Source: an uncultured Candidatus Saccharibacteria bacterium
Lineage (GTDB): Bacteria > Patescibacteriota > Minisyncoccia > Phycocordibacterales > CSBR16-119
Direction: 5' to 3'
Length of the DNA stretch: 64,000 nt
Assembly: GCA_964490365.1 (NCBI GenBank)
Contig: CAZBAG010000001.1
Span: forward strand, 129,512-193,511
Positions 9,571-61,510 of this stretch are shown in pieces; position 1 is the stretch's first letter, and every line of letters begins with the position of its first letter. Under the pieces are notes generated by a model. That model worked only from the letters and a program-made list of their open reading frames with translations, made no database searches and was not told where the DNA came from. A program made the translations under genes and the position numbers.

Positions 9571-9625
9571 AAAAAGACCCCAGAGCATAGCTCCGGGGCC
9601 CTTGCGTCCTCTCTTTGAGGACACA
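9571..9625 (-). terminator. Double hairpin terminator downstream of the 9641..10309 gene
   Basis: On the minus strand, gtcctcaaagagaggac and ccccggagctatgctctgggg are followed by tcttttt. Confidence 0.5.
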
Positions 9626-9640: not shown

Positions 9641-10309
9641 TTAGGCGGGCACCTCTTCGGTGAAGAACTGTTGCGCCTTGAGCGTCTCGAGCGACTGCTC
9701 GTAGGTCGAGCGCGAGCTCTGCACCAAGTTCTGCGTCCAGCGTGCGATCGCCTTCATGGTCGTGTAGAAGTAGCGCTTTGCGAGGGCTTCGTACATCTCT
9801 TCGGTGATCTCACCGTTCTTCTCGATGTAGTCGTTCACCTCCTTGAGCTTCTTCGCACTCGTGTACACGATCTTGCCGGCGTTGGCTGCCGTGGTCGCCG
9901 CAGCGATGCTGTTGTAGTGGAGTGCGTTCTGAACCTCGCTGAAAGGTTCACCTTCGCTCACCACACCAGCGGTCTCGGCGATCTCAACCACCACGATGTT
10001 GAAGGGGATCTTCTGATCCTTTCCTTTTGTCACATCGAAGCTTGTGATACGTGCCATCATCCCCAACGGGAATCCGCTCTTGGGATACCCCTGGTGCATG
10101 ACCACCCCATCCTCGGTCTTCGTGAAATCCTGGTTCTTCACGCCAGCATTCGCGAGCAGGTTATACACCTTCGGTGATGCCTCGATCTTACCGCCGAGCT
10201 TGCTCAAGCGGTTGAGTTCGTGCACCATCTCAGGGCTCACTGCCGTACCCATGACCAGGGCTTGGATGCTTCCTTTGGTCGTCTTGCTCATGTGCTTTAC
10301 CGTCACCAT
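9641..10309 (-). CDS. Hypothetical protein (about 222 aa), strongly GC-rich cassette gene
   Basis: The highest G+C in the window by eye (roughly mid-50s %). The start is ambiguous between MVTVKH, MSKTTK and MQVHIK. The product is unrecognised and Ala/Val-rich. Confidence 0.5.
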   Translation of the reverse strand: MVTVKHMSKTTKGSIQALVMGTAVSPEMVHELNRLSKLGGKIEASPKVYNLLANAGVKNQDFTKTEDGVVMHQGYPKSGFPLGMMARITSFDVTKGKDQKIPFNIVVVEIAETAGVVSEGEPFSEVQNALHYNSIAAATTAANAGKIVYTSAKKLKEVNDYIEKNGEITEEMYEALAKRYFYTTMKAIARWTQNLVQSSRSTYEQSLETLKAQQFFTEEVPA

Positions 10310-10358
10310 CCTGTATATTGGGTTTTTGATGTGAACCTGCATTGGCTCACAAAGGAGT

Positions 10359-10386
10359 ATATTAACCAAATAGAAAATATTGTCAA
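10359..10386 (-). promoter_or_regulatory. Sigma70-like promoter (TTGACA, 16-19 nt spacer, TAATAT/TATACT) for the 9641..10309 gene
   Basis: The minus strand reads gcccTTGACAatattttctatttggttaaTATACT. It lies immediately downstream of a hairpin. Confidence 0.5.
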
Positions 10387-10437: not shown

Positions 10438-11175
10438 CTATTTTTTAAACATTACTGAGCCTGAATCGTATGGAAGCAAGAGTACAAGATTTCCAGAGGT
10501 GTCGAAGAAAACTTGATTTGATTGTGACACAAAATTACTAAATTCTGTCTCTTGTGACCCTTCACAGAACATGAGCGTACTCATAAACGGCCCAAACGTA
10601 ATCATGTTATCGCTATCCACTTTATAGGTTCCAGAAAAATCATTACAGTCAGTATCACCAGAAACATTTCCATCTTTTGTAAATGTCAGTGAATATGCTC
10701 CAGCTTTTTTAGGAGTTACAACAGTATCATCGTTCATAACTGTCTTATCCCAAATCCATTTAGTGCCAACAAGTTCACCTTTTTTACTTGATTCACCCTT
10801 CGGCGCTTCTTCTGTTCAGTTAATAGTTGAGTCTTGAAGTGTTCCGCTGAAAATAACTGTTCCGTTTTGAGAAAGTACAGCAATTTGTCCAACATCTACA
10901 AATGTGATAGATCCATCTTCATTTTTATATGTTACTCCAGATGCGGTTGGAACTCCTGTCAGAGTAAGATTTCCTAGTCCTGAAAATGAAATCTTTGCAG
11001 ATTCTATAGTTACCGTTGCCCGAAGTTCTTTTCCTGAACTATCCGTATACACTTTTGCAGATTCTACAAACTCTTGATCTCCTTCATTATTATTCATACC
11101 TCTATCTTTTTTTGCAAGGAATACAATTGCCACAACAACTAGAATTCCTAATATAACCCATACTACATTTTTCAT
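10438..11175 (-). CDS. Two-domain envelope protein (signal/TM + DUF4377-like domain + META/HslJ domain) interrupted by one in-frame TGA at 10816-10818
   Basis: The ORFs 10816..11175 and 10438..10737 share a frame and are separated only by TGA. The read-through peptide ...TIN*TEEAPKGESSKKGELVGTKWIWDKTVMNDD... supplies the expected first strand of the META domain, which carries the GDTDCNDFSGTY motif. Confidence 0.5.
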
Positions 11176-11209
11176 ACAATAACTTTTAACTATTATTAAT
11201 AATTACTTT

Positions 11210-11647
11210 TTAAATATTGTCTCCTGAGACCATCGGCTCTACTAGAAATGTTACCACATAATCTTTTGGTGCAATAATTTTTGTTGAAAGTGCTGGTGGA
11301 TTTGTGTTTACAATAGAAATCTTGTACTCAGCAAATTCAAGAGGAATTTCGTCCGATGGTTTGTTCAGTGTACGTTCTTCTTCCGGCGCAACAAGGGTAA
11401 TGTTCGCAACAACGGCGCCGGCTTGGATACACTGCACATCAATTGGACACCTGTAGTCGGCAATAAATTCATTAAAGGTGAGTGAAAGATTTGAAAACCT
11501 GGCCGTTTCGCCAACAGCAAGAGAAATTTCTCCTGGTGCCATCACGCGCGAATTTTCGATGGTATCTTGAGGAACATCTTTCTTTTTATCAACATATAAG
11601 AAAATACTGATCCCCAAGAGTGCAATAATTACAATAATTTTTTTCAT
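11210..11647 (-). CDS. Secreted hypothetical protein
   Basis: An MKKIIVIIALLGISIFLY signal, native low-GC composition and no recognised domain. Confidence 0.5.
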   Translation of the reverse strand: MKKIIVIIALLGISIFLYVDKKKDVPQDTIENSRVMAPGEISLAVGETARFSNLSLTFNEFIADYRCPIDVQCIQAGAVVANITLVAPEEERTLNKPSDEIPLEFAEYKISIVNTNPPALSTKIIAPKDYVVTFLVEPMVSGDNI

Positions 11648-11699
11648 ACCATCTATCATATAAAATCTAGCTGTTACATACAGACTGTTATGTGGAAAA

Positions 11700-12191
11700 T
11701 TATTTGTCTAAATATGTAGTGAAGTAAATAGCGTGACACGTATATCCTCCAGGATTTTTTTGTAAGTAGTTTTGATGATAGCTTTCTGCTGGCCAAAATG
11801 TTTTGAATTCTTCAAGTGTAGTCACCGCTGGATCTTTCCACTTACCAGAATTATTCACAGTCTTAATAAAATCTTCTGCTATCTTTTTTTCTTCTTCATT
11901 TTGAAAAAAGATAGCAGAACGATACGAGGTTCCCTTATCGTTTCCCTGCTGATTGAGCGTTGTTGGGTTATGAATACAGAAGAAGAAGTCTAGTATACGT
12001 TTATACGAAATTATATTTGGATCGTACACAACCTCAAGAGCTTCTGCGTGTCCTGGGTGGTTTTCGTAGGTTGGATGTTCGTTACTACCACCTGTATACC
12101 CTGTTTCGGTTGATAGAACGCCAGGCAAACCTCGGAAGAGTTCTTCCATACCCCAGAAACAACCTCCTGCAAGATATGCTTTGTGTGTCAT
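11700..12191 (-). CDS. msrA: Peptide methionine sulfoxide reductase A
   Basis: The GCFWG active-site motif lies near the N-terminus; 163 aa. Confidence 0.9.
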   Translation of the reverse strand: MTHKAYLAGGCFWGMEELFRGLPGVLSTETGYTGGSNEHPTYENHPGHAEALEVVYDPNIISYKRILDFFFCIHNPTTLNQQGNDKGTSYRSAIFFQNEEEKKIAEDFIKTVNNSGKWKDPAVTTLEEFKTFWPAESYHQNYLQKNPGGYTCHAIYFTTYLDK

Positions 12192-12192
12192 A

Positions 12193-12702
12193 TTATTTAC
12201 ACGTCGCTGATAGATAGATTATTTCAGTAGCTTCTTTCGTTTTGTCTGGAACGAGCATATCGTCTTTATCAACAAGCGGATAGCGCAATTTAATCAAGTT
12301 CCCATCTTTTTGCATGTATTCTTCTTGTTCTTTTTGACTAGAACCTTCTACGGTGTAACTAAACACAACAGTTATCTTACCTTCGTCGACGTTACCCGAA
12401 AAGGTTCCTTCATATCCATTTGTCATATCCGGACCAGCCTGAGTTCCCTGTTTTGTTCCAAATACTGTACTGTTTTCAATCTTTAGCTCGATATATTCTT
12501 CTACTGAATACGGCGCATCTTCTGTTACTGATTGGGTACGAGCAAAACACAGCGCATTAGAAGCGGGAACTTTCGGCGTTACAACAGATTCTTCTTCCGA
12601 AATTTCTCCAGGAACAACTATAGGTTTTGTATCTAAAATAAACCAAAATACTGCTGAATACGCAGCGAGAGCAAGTATAAGAATGATAATTATTTTTTTC
12701 AT
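12193..12702 (-). CDS. Secreted hypothetical protein
   Basis: An N-terminal signal/TM segment (MKKIIIILILALAAYSAVFWFI) and no recognised domain. Confidence 0.5.
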   Translation of the reverse strand: MKKIIIILILALAAYSAVFWFILDTKPIVVPGEISEEESVVTPKVPASNALCFARTQSVTEDAPYSVEEYIELKIENSTVFGTKQGTQAGPDMTNGYEGTFSGNVDEGKITVVFSYTVEGSSQKEQEEYMQKDGNLIKLRYPLVDKDDMLVPDKTKEATEIIYLSATCK

Positions 12703-12704
12703 AT

Positions 12705-12795
12705 TTCCTAGCGAGGAGTATCGACAAGCTTGCTTGTATGATCTCCGAACGACGGAAATATACGAGACGAGCGAAGCGAGTGCTCTTATATTAAT
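12705..12795. repeat. Intergenic repeat element, copy 1 (about 85% identical over about 56 nt to the copy at 34878..34965)
   Basis: Shared core ATGATsTCCGArygACGrAAATATAyGAGACGArCGmAGyGAGTGCTCTTAT, plus a shared left edge tatttyctagcgag. Confidence 0.5.
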
Positions 12796-12813
12796 ATAAA
12801 CCTGTTTATTATA

Positions 12814-13557
12814 TTAATCTATTTTTTGAATATTTGTTAGAGCGACATCATTTCCATTTCGTGTGTATGAAAAGCTTGCTTCGCCAGCAATATGTCCGTC
12901 TTCATACTTCATAGTTCCTGTTTTTGTAGCAGGGTCAATACGTATTGCAAAGGCATAAAAAGTTCCACCAAGCACGGGCTCTTCTGGCACCAGAGAAGTA
13001 ATGTTCGCTCGTATGTATTCTGGTACTAATTTTCTGTCGTCGATATCAGAACATACAACGTCGCTAAGTTGTTGCCAGTAAGTCATATTTTCTTTATCAG
13101 AATATACGTACACACCATCACCACGATCAACAAGTGTTCCGTAGCCGACCGAGGCTGTGCCTTCGCCAAACATAATGCGAAGTTCTTGTTTTGTTATCAT
13201 TCCTTCTGACATTGCATCCCACCAGACATCAGCTATTCTTACCATCATCTCCGGAATAACAGGAGTTACTGTGCCTTCAAACGTACCAACATTCCGATCT
13301 TTTTGTGCTGGTATATTATAAAATTCTCCGGTTACCACGCCGCCTTGCAAATTCATTCGAAGCCACGCTGCGTCAACATAGTTAGAGTCCATTGTTGGGG
13401 TTTCTGTGTAGAAACAAAGTTCAACTATTTTTGGCGTTGGAATTGGATTTACTTCAGTGAATTCTCGTTCAGGAGGAGCAGTTTTTTCTTGAACACCTGA
13501 AAAAACCAGAGTGGCAATTCCAGCAACAAGTATCATAAGTAAAATGTTTTTGAACAT
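12814..13557 (-). CDS. Secreted hypothetical protein
   Basis: An N-terminal signal peptide; 247 aa; no recognised domain. Confidence 0.5.
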   Translation of the reverse strand: MFKNILLMILVAGIATLVFSGVQEKTAPPEREFTEVNPIPTPKIVELCFYTETPTMDSNYVDAAWLRMNLQGGVVTGEFYNIPAQKDRNVGTFEGTVTPVIPEMMVRIADVWWDAMSEGMITKQELRIMFGEGTASVGYGTLVDRGDGVYVYSDKENMTYWQQLSDVVCSDIDDRKLVPEYIRANITSLVPEEPVLGGTFYAFAIRIDPATKTGTMKYEDGHIAGEASFSYTRNGNDVALTNIQKID

Positions 13558-13598
13558 AGGAATATTTTACCATACATAACTTTAGCAATACATAAAAT

Positions 13599-13627
13599 AA
13601 AAAGTCCGCCGGCAAAACCGGCGGACT
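13599..13627 (-). terminator. Hairpin terminator downstream of the 13635..14330 gene
   Basis: gtccgccgg caaaa ccggcggac, with a T-run on the minus strand. Confidence 0.55.
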
Positions 13628-13634
13628 GAAATTG

Positions 13635-14330
13635 TTATTCAAGACCCAAACTTTCCTTTTTTCTCACACCACGCTTGTAGGACTTGCGGATATCTCGCTC
13701 ACGGAGTTTGCGTCCTTTACGTACTCGTACTACTTTTTCATAGTACCATATGTACTTCACCCACTTTTCATGGAAATCACGAAGCTCTTTGGTTGGCAAC
13801 ATTAATCTATTTATGAACACTTGAAGATCTCCCTTGCGTTTACCCTTCCACATATATGGATGAAGAGGAACATCTCCTGCACAAGACTCAAGTTCTGTTA
13901 GTAAGGTTACATTGGATTTGTCATGCGGACGCTTTTCAAGAGCAATTGAAAGCATTTCCATCATCCAAAGTGCTCTTTGTAGGAACTTCCCTGTGCGAGT
14001 AGTTTTCCAAGGAATTATTACTTCCTCCTTACCCTTCTTACTGAGGGTTGTGATGAGTACCCACAACTTGCCGGCTTTGGTAAACTTGTGCTCTTTAGGA
14101 TCATAGCTCGTTATCACTCGTATTGTCAGGTTGTCTACCTGTTTTTGCACGATAACTTGTCCAGCAACCTCCCGAATGCGAGGACTATCAGGCGGGACGA
14201 TACCCTGCATTACCTGATTACGAGCTTCACGCTCTGGAGAGATGGGTGCAAAACCCAGTTTCCCAGCTTTTGCGAGAAATGACTCGAACTTTTGTCGAGC
14301 ATAACGAAGAGAAATAAACTTCTTTTTCAT
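13635..14330 (-). CDS. Hypothetical highly basic (K/R-rich) protein, 231 aa, cassette gene
   Basis: G+C is moderately elevated. The leader is C/A-rich (aacgaacgaaacaaacgtacaaagcaATG). It has its own TTGACA -35 box and its own terminator. No recognised family. Confidence 0.5.
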   Translation of the reverse strand: MKKKFISLRYARQKFESFLAKAGKLGFAPISPEREARNQVMQGIVPPDSPRIREVAGQVIVQKQVDNLTIRVITSYDPKEHKFTKAGKLWVLITTLSKKGKEEVIIPWKTTRTGKFLQRALWMMEMLSIALEKRPHDKSNVTLLTELESCAGDVPLHPYMWKGKRKGDLQVFINRLMLPTKELRDFHEKWVKYIWYYEKVVRVRKGRKLRERDIRKSYKRGVRKKESLGLE

Positions 14331-14355
14331 TGCTTTGTACGTTTGTTTCGTTCGT

Positions 14356-14384
14356 TATGTTGCCAGAGATTTTAGAAAATGTCA
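14356..14384 (-). promoter_or_regulatory. Promoter with a consensus TTGACA -35 box and a weak -10, for the 13635..14330 gene
   Basis: On the minus strand, TTGACA (forward tgtcaa at 14379-14384) lies directly after the hairpin at 14388..14420. Confidence 0.4.
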
Positions 14385-14387
14385 AAA

Positions 14388-14420
14388 GAAAAGACCTACC
14401 ACTCTTGAAGTGATAGGTCT
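14388..14420 (-). terminator. Hairpin terminator downstream of the PNP gene
   Basis: agacctacca...tgataggtct followed by ttttctttt on the minus strand. Confidence 0.55.
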
Positions 14421-14426
14421 TGAGAC

Positions 14427-15299
14427 TCAAAGCCTTTCAACAAGATCTGCGATCAATTTCGCAAAAGCTGGACCACCTTCTTTTGCTTTTAAAAGGTTAT
14501 CCTTGTGAGACAAACCATGGGCACCAGCAACATTCGAGACCTGAGACAAAACACAGATCTCTATCCCATTGCGATCCTTCTTTGCACCAGCATCTTTTCG
14601 CTCTTCTGCACCGGCCATGTGGTTTAGGGCGGTTACATCGGGAATAGTTGACATACCCACCGTGTTAGCGCCGAGCATTCGTAAAGCACGCACGTCCGCA
14701 CGGGTCTCAAACTCACGACCAGGACGCATTGCCAGTACAACCTCTTGAATACGAGGATCAATCTGTTTAACGAGATCAATCATTCTGCGAGAATAGGGTT
14801 GGCTCATATCTACATGAAGACTGCTGCCCACCCCACCAATCCTCTCGAGAATATCAGCATTCCCCATCAACGGATATGAGTCGGAGAAAAGAGAAAGATG
14901 ATCCTCTACAACAACAATTGAACCAACGGGAAACTTTTCATCAAGAGATCCCACAAGGTTAGTGCTAATAAACTGAGAGCACCCCCACCACGCAAGAGTT
15001 CGAGATGTTGTCACGGTTTTGTGAATATCACCATGCTCGTTGAGGTGAGTTCTGCCGGGAAACCAAATTGCTGATTTTCCAGCAAGCTCTCCGTAAATAA
15101 CATGGTGAAAGTGACCATCTACTGTTGGCAAAGGAAAATGATCTTCTAGTTCAACCTCTTTCACATGTGTAAACTGATCTCTTAGGTCATGAGGTCCCGA
15201 AGATCCGGTAATAATTGCAAGTTCTGGTGCCTTGCCGAACTTATTAGCAAGCCACTTTGCACCTCCAGTAATATTGTTAAAATGCTCCAGTGTAAGCAT
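14427..15299 (-). CDS. Purine nucleoside phosphorylase (trimeric PNP/MTAP family)
   Basis: Alignable by eye to mammalian-type PNP (..AIITGSSG.., ..GANTVGMSTIPDV.., ..VVVEDHLSLFS..). G+C is elevated. It has its own promoter and terminator. Confidence 0.8.
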   Translation of the reverse strand: MLTLEHFNNITGGAKWLANKFGKAPELAIITGSSGPHDLRDQFTHVKEVELEDHFPLPTVDGHFHHVIYGELAGKSAIWFPGRTHLNEHGDIHKTVTTSRTLAWWGCSQFISTNLVGSLDEKFPVGSIVVVEDHLSLFSDSYPLMGNADILERIGGVGSSLHVDMSQPYSRRMIDLVKQIDPRIQEVVLAMRPGREFETRADVRALRMLGANTVGMSTIPDVTALNHMAGAEERKDAGAKKDRNGIEICVLSQVSNVAGAHGLSHKDNLLKAKEGGPAFAKLIADLVERL

Positions 15300-15337
15300 G
15301 GGAACAGGTTTTAGTGTTTAAAGTACGCCGACTTCAA

Positions 15338-15366
15338 ATACTATAGTATTCTTTTAATTTTTACAA
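15338..15366 (-). promoter_or_regulatory. Sigma70-like promoter TTGTAA-17nt-TAGTAT for the PNP gene
   Basis: The minus strand reads TTGTAAaaattaaaagaatactaTAGTAT, directly downstream of the hairpin at 15374..15399. Confidence 0.45.
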
Positions 15367-15373
15367 TCAAAAC

Positions 15374-15399
15374 AAAATACTCGCGATGGCGAGTATTTT
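15374..15399. terminator. Hairpin (aaaatactcgcgatggcgagtatttt)
   Basis: A perfect inverted repeat with flanking A and T runs. Confidence 0.5.
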
Positions 15400-15406
15400 G
15401 TTTAAA

Positions 15407-15781
15407 CTATTTAAGTTTGATATAAAATCCTTCACTTCCATAGAGTGTGTATGTACCATCTCCAGAATCTTTTGCATACACCTCAACTTCTTTTCCAATA
15501 TGATTTTCTAAGTCACCAAAACCTTCTACTCCCTGCACACTTCCCACAGTTTCCTGACTCCATCCCATAATAGCGGTTACATGTTTGCCATCAACCACCA
15601 CGTAACATTCCCCGTCAGCAAAACATCCTGTGTTCACCTCTTCAAGTGGTCCAGAAAAATTAGCGACTTTTAATTTACCTTCAGATATTTGTGGCTCATT
15701 CACTGATGTATTTCCATGCATCTGCATATATACAACTACTCCAGCGACAATCAAAAGTATAACGATAATAAGTTTTTTCAT
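15407..15781 (-). CDS. Secreted hypothetical protein (124 aa)
   Basis: An MKKLIIVILLIVAGVVVYM signal and no recognised domain. Confidence 0.5.
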   Translation of the reverse strand: MKKLIIVILLIVAGVVVYMQMHGNTSVNEPQISEGKLKVANFSGPLEEVNTGCFADGECYVVVDGKHVTAIMGWSQETVGSVQGVEGFGDLENHIGKEVEVYAKDSGDGTYTLYGSEGFYIKLK

Positions 15782-15942
15782 GAATTTGGTTAATGTGAAA
15801 TTAGTAATGCAACTAGTATATCACTAAATAGCGCTTGCCACTTAAAATAAGGTAGTGTTTGAAATAATTACATTTTTATGTAAAATCCTTGAGAAATCAG
15901 GAAATAAGCCTGATAAGCTCTTTAGCACAAAACAAACCGAAG

Positions 15943-17262
15943 ATGGAGCTCATACCCCTCATCATCCCGACAATTTTTATCCTTGGGTACCTTTGTATAG
16001 CAATAGAGCATAGACTCTCTATCAACAAAGCTGCCCCGGCGGTACTGACTGGTTTTTTGATCTGGACATTTTTATCCACACAACAAGGAGACACGGCAGT
16101 TCATGAGTTTGGACACCATGTTGGCGAGATCGCTGAAATACTCTTCTTTTTGCTCGGTGCAATGATGGTCGTTGAGATGATTGATTCCCATCAAGGGTTT
16201 GAAATTATCACCAATACCATCAGGCTCACAAACAGAGTTTCTCTGTATTGGGTCATTGGGTGGCTGACGTTCTTTCTGTCAGCAGCCCTCGACAACATGA
16301 CAACAGCAATTGTCATGTCGGCTCTACTACGGAAACTGATCGAAGATAAACGAGAGACTTGGGTTTTTGCTGGTATTGTCATCATTGCCGCAAACGCCGG
16401 TGGTGCCTGGTCGCCCATTGGTGATATCACAACGATCATGCTTTGGATGGGAGGACAAGTAAGTAGTGGAAATATCATTGCCGGACTTTTCATTCCAAGT
16501 GTGGCATCGCTCATAATTCCTCTTATTTGGTTTAGCGTGCGGAATCGTGGACACCTTGTTTTGAAATCAGAAGCAACAAATCCTGCTCACAACGGTGAGA
16601 CAAGTGAAGGTGGCACACAAGCCAATCTACGAGAATGGGAAAAGCGACTTATCCTCATCGTAGGACTTCTGTCGCTACTTCTGGTGCCCGTGTTTAAGAA
16701 CTACACACACCTACCTCCATTCATGGGGATCATGGGTGGACTTGGTCTCATGTGGGTAATCACAGAGATCTTCCACCATCGCCACCCAGATCACGAAGAG
16801 CGAGAGAGGCGAAAACACATCACAGCTGCATCCATCTTGAAAAAGATAGATCATGCTAGTATTTTGTTCTTTCTTGGTATCCTCGTTGCTGTTGCAGGAT
16901 TACAAACAGGAGGATATCTCAAGGGTGCAGCGCATTTCCTCGACGAACGTGTTGGAAATGTGTACATCATCAATACCATGATCGGACTCTTGTCTGCGAT
17001 TGTGGACAATGTTCCACTCGTCGCCGCTGCCATGGGTATGTATCCACTAGATATGTATCCACAAGATCATATCTTTTGGGAACTCCTTGCTTTGTGCGCT
17101 GGTACCGGTGGAAGCATTTTGATCATTGGCTCTGCAGCAGGAGTTGCAGTGATGGGGATCTTGAACATCAATTTTTCCTGGTATCTCAAGAACATTGCCC
17201 TGCCTGCACTTCTTGGATACTTGGCATCGATCGGAACATTCTGGCTACAGCAAAACATGTAG
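15943..17262 (+). CDS. NhaD/ArsB-superfamily Na+/H+ antiporter-like permease
   Basis: A polytopic membrane protein, about 440 aa from MELIPLII. The ion-transporter-like segments ALDNMTTAIVM and AANAGGAWSPIGDITTIMLW are present. G+C is elevated, the leader is C/A-rich (acaaaacaaaccgaagATGG) and a strong terminator follows. Confidence 0.6.
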   Translation: MELIPLIIPTIFILGYLCIAIEHRLSINKAAPAVLTGFLIWTFLSTQQGDTAVHEFGHHVGEIAEILFFLLGAMMVVEMIDSHQGFEIITNTIRLTNRVSLYWVIGWLTFFLSAALDNMTTAIVMSALLRKLIEDKRETWVFAGIVIIAANAGGAWSPIGDITTIMLWMGGQVSSGNIIAGLFIPSVASLIIPLIWFSVRNRGHLVLKSEATNPAHNGETSEGGTQANLREWEKRLILIVGLLSLLLVPVFKNYTHLPPFMGIMGGLGLMWVITEIFHHRHPDHEERERRKHITAASILKKIDHASILFFLGILVAVAGLQTGGYLKGAAHFLDERVGNVYIINTMIGLLSAIVDNVPLVAAAMGMYPLDMYPQDHIFWELLALCAGTGGSILIIGSAAGVAVMGILNINFSWYLKNIALPALLGYLASIGTFWLQQNM

Positions 17263-17735: not shown

Positions 17736-18122
17736 TTATTTTTCTTTTAAGCTAATAATACTCACAATACCTTCCATCGTATATTCTTGCCACCACAGTG
17801 AACTCAACGCCTCTTTTGGTGTGAATGTTCCGTGAATTATATATATCGTATTGGTATCCACTTTTGACCAGTCAGATGTCTCAAGAAATTGTGCATCGAT
17901 TGAATAGTAGTAGCCTGCATCACTCACAAAACCCTGTCTACACTCTTTCTCTGTCACCTTATTAACGAGCGGCAAGCACACAAACTTTCCAGTCAACACC
18001 GTAGCATTTGGCAAGCTTTCAAATTCAGGTGGAACTGAAATTTGTCTTATCGAAATAAAATACCAGCCAGCAAAACCGACGAGCACAAGCACAATAACTG
18101 ATTGCCATAATTTCATGCACAT
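17736..18122 (-). CDS. Membrane-anchored hypothetical protein
   Basis: An N-terminal TM helix and no recognised domain. Confidence 0.45.
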   Translation of the reverse strand: MCMKLWQSVIVLVLVGFAGWYFISIRQISVPPEFESLPNATVLTGKFVCLPLVNKVTEKECRQGFVSDAGYYYSIDAQFLETSDWSKVDTNTIYIIHGTFTPKEALSSLWWQEYTMEGIVSIISLKEK

Positions 18123-37922: not shown

Positions 37923-39596
37923 TTACCTATTGAGGAACACTCTCGCTAATTGCACATCAAAATACGAAGTATTCCCCCCTACTTTACTTTTCACCGGTGA
38001 AAGATTCAGTTCGCCTGTTGCATCATAGAGTTTTTGAAACGTCACCAGAATATCTTTAAACTTCTTTCCCTTTGGCTTAAGATACGAGACTTCTTCTTTT
38101 TCAATCTTCCCTTCCATTACCAATTTTTCAATATGAGTTAAGACAGTTTCTTTCGTTAAGCCTCTTTCGACTGCAATATCATCAATACTTTTTTGTTCGA
38201 GCAGCAAAACTTTTGTTTTTTCAAACGTACTTGTTTTATCAAGTTCAGCTTCACGAGCTTGTACGTCAATCACTTGGATTGATCCTTCAGATCGAATGAT
38301 AAAATCTTCTTGGGATTTTTGTATTTCCTCTGGTGTTTTTTTGTGTAAATAGTCTTGTATGTGGGCCGACTTACTTCGAAACTTTTTATCAGCTTCAATA
38401 ATTTTTGGATGTACCATCAGCGCTTGAGCATTGAATCCCAAAAGCTTAAGCCCTTCTAACGTTCGTACACGAGAAAGCGCCACGTAGCCTTGTCCATATT
38501 CAAAAGCACGACCTAAATCGATCTCAGCGGCATCTAGGGACATTCCTTGGCTTTTGTGGACCGTAATAGCCCACGCCAGACGAAGTGGTACCTGGGCAAT
38601 AGAGGCGATGATTTTATCGCCATCTTCAATACTCCACGACACAGGTTCGATGAGTAATTCTTTACCTTGATTCGTGACAATAATCGGGTACCCAGTTTCC
38701 TTTTCAAAATCAATCACCTCACCGAGTGTGCCGTTTACATACCCCACTTCGAAATTGTTTTTCGTACACATCACCACCGCTCCGATTTTCAAACATAGAT
38801 TTTCTGGAGAAAGACAACTTTCTTTTAAACGTTGCACGTGGTTCCCCTTTCCCTTTGAAACCATCTCATAGTACTCTTCATCTTGATCAATTTTTGCGAG
38901 TTCTTCTTGGTTTATTTTATCGACATCTGCGTTGTGCGTATACAGTTTTGTGGACTTAATCACATCTTCAAAAGAAACATCGAGCCTGTCACGAAGTTCT
39001 TCAAATTCTTCTTCAACATCTCCACTACGGATACGGTCAAGAATCCCCAGCAAAGCATGATCTTCTTGACGGTGTTGTTCGGTGATATAGGCAACGAGCG
39101 GATTTACCTCTTTCCAAGCAGCTGACTCAAAAGCAAATTGGGTCGCTTCACCTTTTTTCGTGATTGGTGGAAGCTGAAAAAAGTCGCCCACGACGATAAC
39201 CTGCATGCCACCAAACGGTAGATTATTTCTCCTAAACGATTTACAGACTTTATTGACCGAATCAAAAAGATCTCCGGAGAGCATTGAAATTTCATCAATG
39301 ATGAGAACTTTTGTTTGCTCGTATCGCTTCCAAAGATATTTTTTACCTTCAAGTTCATCAACTTCGTAGTCAGTGATTTTCTGCCGAGCGCCAATGCCTG
39401 ACCATGAGTGAATGGTTACTCCGCCAATGTGTGTTGCGGCAATACCGGTTGAAGCAGTTATTGCCGCAGAAATATCATGTTCTTTCAGATACTTTGTGTA
39501 TTGATTTAAGACATATGTTTTACCCGCACCAGGAGCACCAGTGAGAAAAACATTGGCGCCAGTTTTTAGGATTGTGAGAGCGTCTGATTGAGTCAT
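37923..39596 (-). CDS. RecD/Pif1-like ATP-dependent DNA helicase (AAA_30 + UvrD_C-like) with a C-terminal HTH
   Basis: Walker A GAPGAGKT, Walker B IIDEISM and SF1 helicase motifs (...VHKSQG...); 557 aa. Confidence 0.7.
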   Translation of the reverse strand: MTQSDALTILKTGANVFLTGAPGAGKTYVLNQYTKYLKEHDISAAITASTGIAATHIGGVTIHSWSGIGARQKITDYEVDELEGKKYLWKRYEQTKVLIIDEISMLSGDLFDSVNKVCKSFRRNNLPFGGMQVIVVGDFFQLPPITKKGEATQFAFESAAWKEVNPLVAYITEQHRQEDHALLGILDRIRSGDVEEEFEELRDRLDVSFEDVIKSTKLYTHNADVDKINQEELAKIDQDEEYYEMVSKGKGNHVQRLKESCLSPENLCLKIGAVVMCTKNNFEVGYVNGTLGEVIDFEKETGYPIIVTNQGKELLIEPVSWSIEDGDKIIASIAQVPLRLAWAITVHKSQGMSLDAAEIDLGRAFEYGQGYVALSRVRTLEGLKLLGFNAQALMVHPKIIEADKKFRSKSAHIQDYLHKKTPEEIQKSQEDFIIRSEGSIQVIDVQAREAELDKTSTFEKTKVLLLEQKSIDDIAVERGLTKETVLTHIEKLVMEGKIEKEEVSYLKPKGKKFKDILVTFQKLYDATGELNLSPVKSKVGGNTSYFDVQLARVFLNR

Positions 39597-59602: not shown

Positions 59603-61510
59603 ATGAAGCTTGTTACGATTATCCCATTTTTAAAAACACTCACCACAGAAACACTGACATATTTCTCTGGCAAAGAAGTGTCTATTGGAGATATTGTGGT
59701 GGCTCCACTCCGAAACAAACATATTGAAGGAATGATAACGAACGTTGAAGAAGTAAGTACACAAAAAGGAGACGTAAAAGATGCAGAATTTCATTTAAAA
59801 AAAATAAAAGAGGTGCGCGGCACATCTGTTTTTTTACCTTCATTTATTACCTCATGCGAACTTATTAAAGATTATTTTGTTGCAAATACTGGACAATTAC
59901 TCAACACCCTCATACCAAATGTACTCCTTGCCTATTATGAAGATCTAAAAAAAGAAAAAGTAAACGACCATATTCGCGGGCCATTAGCTAGAGAAAAGTA
60001 TGCTTTCCAAGCACCAACAGAAGACAGGCTCGTTATCTACAAAACCTACATACGTGAATCATTCGCAAAAAAAGAGTCTGTGTATTTGTGCTTCCCTACA
60101 GTGAGCGAAGCAAAATATTTTTATGACATTCTTCATAAAGGAATTGAAGATTATTCTTTTTTTCTTCACGGAAGCGTACCTAAAAAAGATTTTGTAATGA
60201 GTTACAACAGCATCGTTAGTAGTGAACACCCTATTGTGCTTTTTAGTACGCCAAGTTTTTTCTGCATACCACGAAATGATTTTGGCACCATTATTCTTGA
60301 ACGTGAAAGTTCAAGCTCGTATGTATCACTACAAAAACCATATCTCGATGCACGTATTTTTGCTGAAGCACTTTCATACGAACAAAACACAAAAATTATT
60401 TTTGCCGACTCAATCCTTCGGAGCGAAACAATCTGGAGAACAAAAGTAGGAGAACTTGCTGAATTCAGGCCTCTGAACTTTCGTCTTCCAGAAAAAGAAG
60501 AGGAAGAGATTATTAACATGAAAGAAAACACTGACAAAGATTTTCAGATTATTTCACGGAAAGTGTTTCAAAAAATAAAAGAAAATATTCAAACTGGCAA
60601 ACAGATGATTTTATTTACCCTGAGGAAAGGCTATGCCACAACAACCATTTGCAATGATTGTGGGACGGTTGTAACAGAAAATGGCGAACCTCTTATTTTA
60701 TTCGAAGATCGAGAACGTGGGATTCGATACTTCAAAGCAACAAAAAGTAAGAAGGTGCTCAGTGCGGAAAGACTGTGTGATCACTGCGGAAGCTGGAATC
60801 TTATTGCCCTTGGTATTGGAACACAAAAAGTGTACGAGGAAGTATCGCACATTGTAAGTAAAGAAAAAATCTTCCTCCTTGATAAAGAAGAGGCTGGAAC
60901 AGAAAAACGTGCTGAGAAAATTGTTCGCGACTTTGAAGGAACCCCTGGGTCGATTCTTGTCACCACCGAGATGGCACTCTTTTACTTAAAAAAAGATGTT
61001 GATACTGTAGCAGTTGTTTCATTCGATAGTCTGTTTAATATTCCGCATTACAATATTTATGAAAAAATAATTGATCTTGTGGTCTCACTCAATTCGTACA
61101 CTAAGAAAAGTATGCTGGTACAGACAAGAAATTCTGATGAGAAAATTTTACATCACATACAGAATCGCAACCTGCTTCAGTTTTATAAAGATGATATTGA
61201 TCATAGAAAGCAGTATAAATATCCGCCCTTTTATACGCTTATCAAAGTAAGTTATGAAAGCAATCTACAAGAAAAGACTGAGGTAGTGGCATATCTTGAA
61301 GCAACCTATGGCTCCTACAGACCAGTTATTCATGAGCGAAGAGTAGGTAAGAACCAAGTAACTATTACTATGATCATACGTATTGAGAGACAAGGATGGC
61401 TAAACCGCTGCATCGCTGTTGAAGGGGTTCAGGACAAAGAACTTCTTGAAAAGCTGAGAACCCTTCCCTCATATTGGTCAATCCAGATAAATCCAAGCCA
61501 GTTGTTTTAG
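59603..61510 (+). CDS. priA: Primosomal protein N' (PriA)-like helicase with a degenerate Walker A motif
   Basis: PriA architecture including the Cys4 zinc cluster (CNDCG...CDHCG). The GxGKT position reads LCFPTVSEAKY. Confidence 0.6.
   Translation: MKLVTIIPFLKTLTTETLTYFSGKEVSIGDIVVAPLRNKHIEGMITNVEEVSTQKGDVKDAEFHLKKIKEVRGTSVFLPSFITSCELIKDYFVANTGQLLNTLIPNVLLAYYEDLKKEKVNDHIRGPLAREKYAFQAPTEDRLVIYKTYIRESFAKKESVYLCFPTVSEAKYFYDILHKGIEDYSFFLHGSVPKKDFVMSYNSIVSSEHPIVLFSTPSFFCIPRNDFGTIILERESSSSYVSLQKPYLDARIFAEALSYEQNTKIIFADSILRSETIWRTKVGELAEFRPLNFRLPEKEEEEIINMKENTDKDFQIISRKVFQKIKENIQTGKQMILFTLRKGYATTTICNDCGTVVTENGEPLILFEDRERGIRYFKATKSKKVLSAERLCDHCGSWNLIALGIGTQKVYEEVSHIVSKEKIFLLDKEEAGTEKRAEKIVRDFEGTPGSILVTTEMALFYLKKDVDTVAVVSFDSLFNIPHYNIYEKIIDLVVSLNSYTKKSMLVQTRNSDEKILHHIQNRNLLQFYKDDIDHRKQYKYPPFYTLIKVSYESNLQEKTEVVAYLEATYGSYRPVIHERRVGKNQVTITMIIRIERQGWLNRCIAVEGVQDKELLEKLRTLPSYWSIQINPSQLF

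Follow-up and report, generated by a model that had tools for sequence, protein, structure and literature searches.

A divergent purine nucleoside phosphorylase gene in a variable slot beside the gene for an unannotated basic protein of the candidate phyla radiation

In the 64-kb window analyzed here (64,000 nucleotides of contig CAZBAG010000001.1 from an uncultured Candidatus Saccharibacteria bacterium), two neighboring genes on the reverse strand encode a divergent purine nucleoside phosphorylase (PNP) and a 231-amino-acid (aa) basic protein. The original prediction, made from the sequence letters, had read them as a tandem cassette pair. We consider it probable (roughly 0.65) that they are two adjacent, independent genes, that the PNP landed in a variable slot, and that its neighbor is a basic nucleic-acid binder. 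Judged from gene order, the PNP gene is an accessory gene: three related lineages have it, and six are without it at the same position. As we picture the arrangement, PNP would have arrived in a variable slot next to the basic-protein gene and would there split nucleosides with phosphate into a free base and (deoxy)ribose-1-phosphate. These products could feed base salvage and pentose use where nucleotides cannot be made de novo.

Gene order in related lineages

Synteny was assessed by tblastn of nine window proteins against the fetched loci of relatives. The order cupin, CitMHS (-), p124 where present, basic protein, p247, p169 and MsrA recurred in loci L004, L005/L006, L007, L008 and L009, and partly in L012. 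In none of these was PNP found by tblastn at the syntenic slot, which lies between the genes of p124 and the basic protein at the following positions:

Window 14331..15406; L004:7372-8000; L005:7909-8000; L012:1226-1851: slot between the p124 and basic-protein genes

The slot is occupied by PNP in the window, in L018 (PNP 87% and p124 96% identical) and in L019 (PNP 70% identical). In L004 and L007 it holds a 144-aa open reading frame (ORF) without a Pfam family, in L012 there is a 627-bp gap without a PNP match, and in L005/L006 it is empty; p124 itself is missing in L008/L009. Among 5.8 billion proteins the only close relatives of the PNP were the two from L018 and L019, the next matches having at most 33% identity. 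Between the two genes lie a 14-bp hairpin with a T-run and then a conserved TTGACA-17-CAACAT promoter, and from this terminator and promoter the genes are predicted to be independent, separately transcribed units. Since PNP is missing from the slot in six lineages whose block is otherwise retained, and a strong terminator and a promoter stand between the genes, we see no conserved functional pair, and the proposed tandem cassette falls away.

We also weighed the possibility that the two genes form a module in which, for example, the basic protein regulates or tethers PNP. In the window they do stand side by side on one strand, and in L018, too, a protein of this broad family comes directly after the PNP. 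Against this, the basic protein persists without PNP in the six syntenic lineages, and other members of its family adjoin unrelated genes (HhH-GPD/Smr; Tag/UvrC; bL31/RF/CysRS). The intervening terminator and the basic-protein gene's own conserved promoter likewise argue against a module, as does an Rfam scan of 12500..16200, which gave nothing at or above gathering scores, only hairpin noise, and thus no riboswitch or leader shared by the two genes. Such a module is highly improbable.

Promoters, terminators and layout of the two units

The features of the region, read in the direction of transcription, are as follows.

15370..15403, reverse strand: hairpin terminating p124, the gene upstream (15407..15781), a 15-bp perfect inverted repeat immediately ahead of the PNP promoter, kept in L018
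15338..15366, reverse strand: PNP promoter TTGTAA-17-TAGTAT, boxes and spacer length kept in L018 and L019
14427..15299, reverse strand: divergent PNP of the trimeric family, 290 aa, ATG start, PF01048
14391..14421, reverse strand: PNP terminator hairpin, 14 bp with T-run, kept in L018
14357..14385, reverse strand: basic-protein promoter TTGACA-17-CAACAT, with TGG directly before the -10 box (TGn motif)
13635..14330, reverse strand: basic protein, 231 aa, ATG start, member of an unannotated candidate phyla radiation (CPR) family
13815..13934, reverse strand: degenerate zinc ribbon of the basic protein, residues 133-172 (RPHD...W161), ligands gone
13638..13727, reverse strand: K/R-rich C-terminal tail of the basic protein, residues 202-231
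13603..13627, reverse strand: basic-protein terminator hairpin, GC-rich stem of 11 bp and then a T-run

The original prediction had placed the two ORFs, all three hairpins and the boxes of both promoters correctly, and its view that each gene has its own promoter and terminator is borne out at the sequence level by conserved boxes and by hairpins that are stable relative to shuffled sequences. Folding energies were -20.2 kcal/mol for 15370-15403 (z = -7.6), -19.1 kcal/mol for 14391-14421 (z = -4.7) and -21.5 kcal/mol for 13603-13627 (z = -7.8). The T-run of the PNP terminator directly abuts the TTGACA (-35) of the basic-protein gene. A layout of hairpin, T-run and TTGACA-N14-TGGCAATAT recurs 5' of the basic-protein orthologues in L004, L005, L007, L012 and L018. 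The PNP promoter matches the consensus at 8 of 12 positions, below the listing level of the promoter scan, and its spacer is constant in length with drifting letters in L018 and L019. Promoter-like hexamers occur in the region at chance level (8 found, 7.5 expected); both promoters are credible because they are conserved among relatives and not because of the hexamer count. That insulated units should be unusual in this genome was not confirmed. The first 20 kb contain 26 terminator-like sites where 14.9 ± 4.7 are expected, some of them after unrelated genes, so that hairpin-ended single-gene units are normal for the genome and not peculiar to this pair.

A divergent purine nucleoside phosphorylase

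The PNP matches Pfam PF01048 (PNP_UDP_1) with 71 bits (gathering cut-off 25.1, E = 1.3e-19), which places it in the PNP/MTAP superfamily, as had been proposed. It aligns end to end with the NCBIfam models PRK08202 and TIGR01697 (PNPH-PUNA-XAPA), yet scores only 150.6 bits against a cut-off of 218 and 128.6 bits against 197.1, respectively. It falls under these cut-offs because the sequence is too divergent in spite of the full-length alignment. The entries matched by sequence in the PDB are, without exception, trimeric PNP or XapA enzymes. Human PNP is at the top (99 bits, E = 2e-27), followed by bacterial entries at 96, 91 and 89.5 bits. In a phylogeny with small taxon sampling, the clade of the window, L018 and L019 enzymes forms its own long branch. 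Its identity to all other trimeric PNPs compared is 28-34% (human 31%), whereas those enzymes share 33-53% with one another. Of the earlier label "mammalian-type" the assignment to the trimeric family thus stands, but no mammalian affinity was found.

Active-site residues were mapped in a MAFFT alignment with human PNP, whose sequence agrees with the alignment from the PDB search. In human numbering, S33, H64, R84, H86, E89, N115, F200, E201, M219, S220, N243 and H257 are kept. We take the phosphate-binding residues of trimeric PNPs to be S33, H64, R84, H86 and S220, with A116 as a backbone contact; all five are present, and A116 is replaced by Leu. The 6-oxopurine pair E201/N243 is present as well, and the homologues P0013-P0015 carry D at position 243. 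Changes specific to the clade are Y88N, A116L, A117V, F159H, Y192L, T242S, K244V and V260N. Two of them, Y88N and F159H (a residue of the neighboring subunit), fall in the ribose pocket, where F200, M219 and H257 have not changed. A charged insertion of 16 residues, AGAEERKDAGAKKDRNG, seen in comparison with human and other PNPs, directly precedes the N243 strand (14550..14615, residues ~229-250); the L019 orthologue is without 10 of these residues. The enzyme resembles the trimeric, low-molecular-mass PNPs (human and bovine PNP, PunA/DeoD-II, XapA) in its full-length alignment, its phosphate site and E201/N243, and differs from them in overall identity, in sub-cut-off model scores, in the clade-specific changes and in the insertion. 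By these comparisons it belongs to the trimeric PNP/PunA/XapA family and evolves fast. Its most likely substrates would be inosine/guanosine-type 6-oxopurine (deoxy)nucleosides together with phosphate, possibly with altered sugar recognition.

The G+C content of the PNP gene is 0.456 (z = +1.35). This agrees with the elevation noted in the original prediction, but the elevation is modest (rank 11 of 72 window genes) and nearly absent at third codon positions (GC3, z only +0.26). Synonymous-codon fit is native (z = -0.69), so that neither measure gives a sign of foreign origin, and the suggestion drawn from G+C does not hold up against the codon usage of the other window genes. A recent horizontal gain of a eukaryote- or mammal-like enzyme is scarcely credible: the human best match in the PDB, the raised G+C and the patchy distribution among relatives speak for it, but bacterial PNP/XapA structures score nearly as well as the human one, human identity lies within the prokaryotic range of 28-34% on a separate long branch, GC3 and codon fit are native, and the orthologues, 87% and 70% identical, likewise follow p124 in this slot, which implies that the gene was resident before the lineages split. 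With this, a false lead is removed, namely a PNP/basic-protein module and a eukaryote-like transfer.

CPR bacteria have no nucleotide biosynthesis, and nucleosides can enter their central metabolism (PMC5113843, PMC12455944). The lack of nucleotide biosynthesis and the possible use of nucleoside ribose as a carbon source fit the predicted role of the PNP. With its altered ribose pocket, this very divergent PNP illustrates how genes for nucleoside salvage are gained and lost in CPR bacteria, organisms dependent on scavenged nucleosides.

The basic protein represents an unannotated family

The neighboring protein has 31 K and 21 R against 25 D/E, a net charge of +27 and a pI of 10.3. Together with the lack of any library match, this upholds the earlier description of the protein as very basic and without a known family. 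An aromatic helix, WVKYIWYYE (residues ~186-200), precedes the K/R tail, and residues 206-231 alone carry a net charge of +7. No N-terminal hydrophobic segment, signal or anchor was found in the sequence. Searches of Pfam, NCBIfam, PHROG and PADLOC with the window protein gave no match, apart from isolated chance-level PHROG and PADLOC matches. When all 64 sequences of the family alignment were run against Pfam, PHROGs and PADLOC, only sub-threshold zinc-ribbon matches appeared. Neither the protein nor the family profile matched a PDB sequence at E < 0.1, and our literature search on CPR PNP, CPR ribosomal extras and the basic-protein family found nothing specific.

A word-indexed search yielded nine homologues with 44-63% identity, all unnamed. 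The family has at least 62 clusters: when 1.84 billion representatives were searched exhaustively with a profile, that many came out at E <= 1e-3, and 34 reached E <= 1e-10. Almost all were full-length matches of 205-266 aa, and pI values in the family are 8.8-10.5. A profile scan of metagenomes with a 12-sequence alignment returned one locus only. No relative was detected in IMG/VR (profile scan) or in phage records (tblastn). An HMM search of all six-frame ORFs found no paralogue in the window; the gene is single-copy per locus. The relatives come from metagenome-assembled genomes (MAGs) labelled "Candidatus Saccharibacteria" and "Candidatus Paceibacterota", which identifies the chromosome in the window as that of a CPR (Patescibacteria) bacterium. 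The basic protein belongs to an unnamed, CPR-restricted family of ~220 aa and is cytoplasmic. Like other CPR "hypothetical protein" families, this one is known from CPR MAGs only and is unnamed in all sources; what sets it apart is that a membership, a confident model, a domain reading and an example of replacement are now given. Returning to the two proteins together, the PNP groups only with the CPR PNPs of the same slot, and the basic protein counts as a conserved accessory protein of CPR bacteria, though not as a known one. The original prediction had held that a PNP grouping with CPR PNPs and a known conserved CPR ribosomal or accessory protein would speak against it, and half of this was found.

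Positions P47, R51, R112, P135, W161 and Y197 are near-invariant in the family. Basic residues are conserved at R37, R51, K63, R112, R119, R134, R202, R204, R212, R215 and K216, and only two positions reach 60% D/E. With about a dozen basic positions conserved and no acidic residues that could plausibly be catalytic, the family looks more like binding proteins than like enzymes. On this pattern, the balance leans slightly toward a non-enzymatic protein that binds nucleic acid of some kind, DNA or RNA. Two enzymatic candidates were rejected. A site like that of tyrosine recombinases or topoisomerase IB, prompted by R51, R112, W161 and Y197, does not fit in spacing or predicted fold and has no Foldseek match; a PD-(D/E)xK or GIY-YIG nuclease finds no conserved acidic or motif residues in the family.

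Predicted structure and a decayed zinc ribbon

AlphaFold2, run with the 64-sequence alignment, gave a model with a predicted local distance difference test score (pLDDT) of 92 and a predicted template modeling score (pTM) of 0.89. The predicted N-terminal part consists of helix 11-24, strand 28-30, helices 32-41 and 50-55, and a four-strand meander at 60-111. The C-terminal part has helix 116-132, a four-strand ribbon at 140-171, helix 181-205 and the basic tail. The ribbon strands (140-144, 146-149, 159-162 and 169-171) have block-mean pLDDT values of ~81-97. Over the last two 10-residue blocks pLDDT drops to 63 and then 44, the last ~15 residues being of low confidence. Foldseek found no fold neighbor in the PDB for this model (best E = 0.31, TM < 0.2), nor for a first, weaker model (best E = 0.07, TM < 0.2). 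Against BFVD the first model best matched an uncharacterised protein of Bacillus phage SP-15 (E = 3e-3, TM 0.33/0.52), which we judged uninformative.

Zinc ligands of the pattern RPxCxxC...WxCxxH/C are present in 5 of the 64 members (P0046, P0047, P0051, P0070 and P0072). The window protein and 59 of the 64 aligned members are without metal ligands; the ribbon region of the window protein contains one Cys and two His, none at ligand positions. In the Cys-bearing members the ribbon weakly matches Zn_ribbon_IS1595, Zn_ribbon_SprT and Zn_ribbon_recom (E = 7e-4 to 0.05). From the alignment, the zinc ribbon is decayed in the window lineage, and the window protein is predicted to retain the shape of the beta-ribbon without its ligands. 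The likeness to small zinc-ribbon modules is limited to the few members that share CxxC...C..H/C at ~126-174. All of the matches are below the gathering score, most members are ligand-free, and the N-terminal alpha/beta domain, the aromatic helix and the K/R tail have no counterpart in the zinc-ribbon families.

The protein would accordingly begin with an N-terminal alpha/beta domain and a long helix, continue with a ligand-less zinc ribbon and an aromatic helix, and end in the K/R tail. We tentatively propose, as a possibility that falls well short of an even chance, that it represents a new CPR-specific fold and family: a dedicated nucleic-acid-binding factor, such as a nucleoid, repair or ribosome-associated protein, that replaces a function lost in genome reduction and can be exchanged in place between distant members of the family. 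The basic protein defines an unannotated CPR family and shows a confident model without PDB neighbors, a decayed zinc ribbon and an apparent replacement by a distant homologue under the same promoter (described below). If it is a CPR-specific nucleic-acid-binding factor, it would be one more of the few lineage-specific informational proteins of these reduced genomes.

Probable replacement in place in L018

From PNP through its terminator and the TTGACA promoter to the leader, as far as ACGTACAAAG, the DNA of L018 is ~90% identical to the window. At the start codon of the basic-protein gene the similarity collapses, and the region L018:1229-1729 carries a distant, zinc-ribbon-bearing family member in the slot of window 13635..14330. 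The ribbon of this protein reads ...RPRCKECGDYM...FWRCKKH..., and it is 44% identical to P0070. BLAST detects no similarity between it and the window protein; their identity is 23% in the hhalign alignment. Against the family profile, hhalign gives it a probability of 98.7 (E = 2e-16). One slot and one promoter with two very distant family members between near-identical flanks point to replacement of the basic-protein gene through homologous flanks. Alternatively, the breakpoint may be an assembly chimera in a short Logan contig.

Family contexts and candidate roles of the basic protein

Members of the family occur in four settings. The first is the MsrA block of the window lineage; the second lies directly upstream of an HhH-GPD glycosylase and Smr (L010, L015); the third is beside Tag glycosylase, UvrC and UvrA (L016, L017); and the fourth is among bL25, bL31, RF, CysRS, bL21, RecR and DnaB (L020-L023). 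The repair-gene neighbors are a lead, yet they amount to two independent contexts only, and context yields no function. A conserved downstream partner was considered and rejected: the proteins of 247, 153 and 143 aa found there have no Pfam family and vary by context, as judged without direct mutual comparison.

The identical P0070 gene was seen in two upstream contexts (L016:1-6000 and L017:1-6000). One has an island with a helix-turn-helix (HTH) protein, an EcoRI-type methylase and GmrSD/HNH, and the other a 1438-aa surface protein. Non-coding DNA of 0.5-0.9 kb lies directly upstream of P0070 in both.

Of the specific roles, we first weighed that of a CPR-specific ribosomal or ribosome-associated, RNA-binding protein. 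A pI of ~10, a K/R tail and a mass of ~25 kDa would suit it; zinc-ribbon remnants are common among ribosomal proteins; P0080 is encoded among bL25, bL31, RF, CysRS and bL21; and a syntenic DEAD-box helicase lies ~4 kb off. However, no Pfam or NCBIfam ribosomal-protein model matches any of the 64 members, and 62 clusters in 1.84 billion representatives are far too few for a universal CPR ribosomal component. Moreover, the location of the gene varies across the family, and the swap in L018 for a homologue undetectable by BLAST would be unusual for a core ribosomal part. The role is unlikely, and the earlier comparison with organellar or ordinary ribosomal proteins founders on the same missing model matches, sparse family and varying context.

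An accessory role in DNA repair or recombination, such as that of a minimal RecO-like mediator or a damage-sensing partner, is quite unlikely. Zinc-bearing members do adjoin HhH-GPD and Smr (L010, L015) and Tag, UvrC and UvrA (L016, L017), and RecR and DnaB are encoded no more than 4 kb from P0080. RecO is a basic protein of ~240 aa with a beta-rich N-terminal domain followed by helices, and its zinc finger is lost in some lineages. The basic protein resembles it in length, charge, domain order and lineage-wise zinc loss. It differs in having no sequence or fold match to RecO and only one helix between the beta domain and the ribbon. No member of the 64 matches RecO_N or RecO_C in Pfam, and Foldseek ranked RecO 25th with a probability of 0.03 for the weaker model and outside the top 50 for the good one. 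The repair contexts, as said, are two, with genes partly on the opposite strand, and the block of the window lineage contains no DNA-repair gene. As a candidate in its own right, the RecO-like mediator was rejected, having no support from Pfam, from the profile search against PDB sequences or from Foldseek.

Very unlikely, in our judgment, is membership in a conflict or mobile system, whether for defence, for anti-defence or as a DNA binder that an element encodes. It would explain the replacement and the variable flanks, that is, the distant family member in the L018 slot with its breakpoint at the start codon and the two upstream contexts of P0070, one with a restriction-modification/GmrSD island. 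The weak zinc-ribbon matches, too, are of transposase, SprT and recombinase types. But neither PADLOC nor PHROG has a matching family, and IMG/VR and phage records hold no relative. In seven lineages synteny is stable and inheritance vertical, with divergence rates like those of the neighbors, and no flanking repeats, integrase or partner gene were found.

Evidence against the proposed interpretation

Several observations weigh against reading the pair as independent genes for a divergent PNP and a nucleic-acid binder. A family member stands 3' of PNP again in L018, which makes the adjacency true of two of the three PNP-bearing lineages, the L019 contig ending before the site. The adjacency in L018 is there because the slot is conserved, and that alone does not rule out an interaction. 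The absence of PNP is judged from the syntenic slot and from the lack of close database homologues, not from the whole genomes of the relatives. The PNP scores under both the equivalog and the subfamily cut-offs of NCBIfam. Its changes at contacts with the ribose and the neighboring subunit (Y88N, A116L, F159H and Y192L) may mean a substrate other than inosine/guanosine. Finally, the basic composition and the ribbon remnant are only suggestive as support for nucleic-acid binding.

Genome neighborhood

Housekeeping genes in the window include those of GluRS, MurG, FtsW, MraY, an AspRS-type aminoacyl-tRNA synthetase, DnaB, CorA, CysRS, DnaK, AlaRS, PriA, FtsA and a Pif1-type helicase. ARAGORN found no tRNA or tmRNA in the 64 kb, though several aminoacyl-tRNA synthetase genes are there. 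The immediate neighbors of the two genes encode a cupin, a CitMHS transporter, MsrA, a META-domain protein and a MliC-like protein.

Small proteins with an anchor or signal in a hydrophobic N-terminus are encoded around the pair at 10438..13557, 15407..15781 and 17736..18122 (p124, p247, p169, p128 and proteins of 149 and 119 aa), most of them without a Pfam family. The 119-aa protein weakly matches the MliC lysozyme inhibitor, and the META-domain protein belongs to the same run. The run looks like a conserved envelope or secreted block around MsrA.

The strongest compositional outlier of the window is a 242-aa ORF at 9641..10369 on the reverse strand, with a promoter at 10386..10359 and a terminator at 9573..9603. 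Its G+C content is 0.547 (z = +3.5) and its GC3 0.77 (z = +4.3); its codon fit (z = -2.9) is the second-poorest of 72 ORFs, and it weakly matches DUF7303 (E = 0.003). By composition, this ORF is a better candidate than the PNP for a recent horizontal acquisition.

Two further genes stood out for their domain content. At 59603..61510 on the forward strand, a 635-aa PriA-like protein is encoded of which only the 3'-DNA-binding domain scores in Pfam. The gene at 37923..39596 on the reverse strand encodes a helicase of the Pif1 family whose C-terminal domain is HTH_40.

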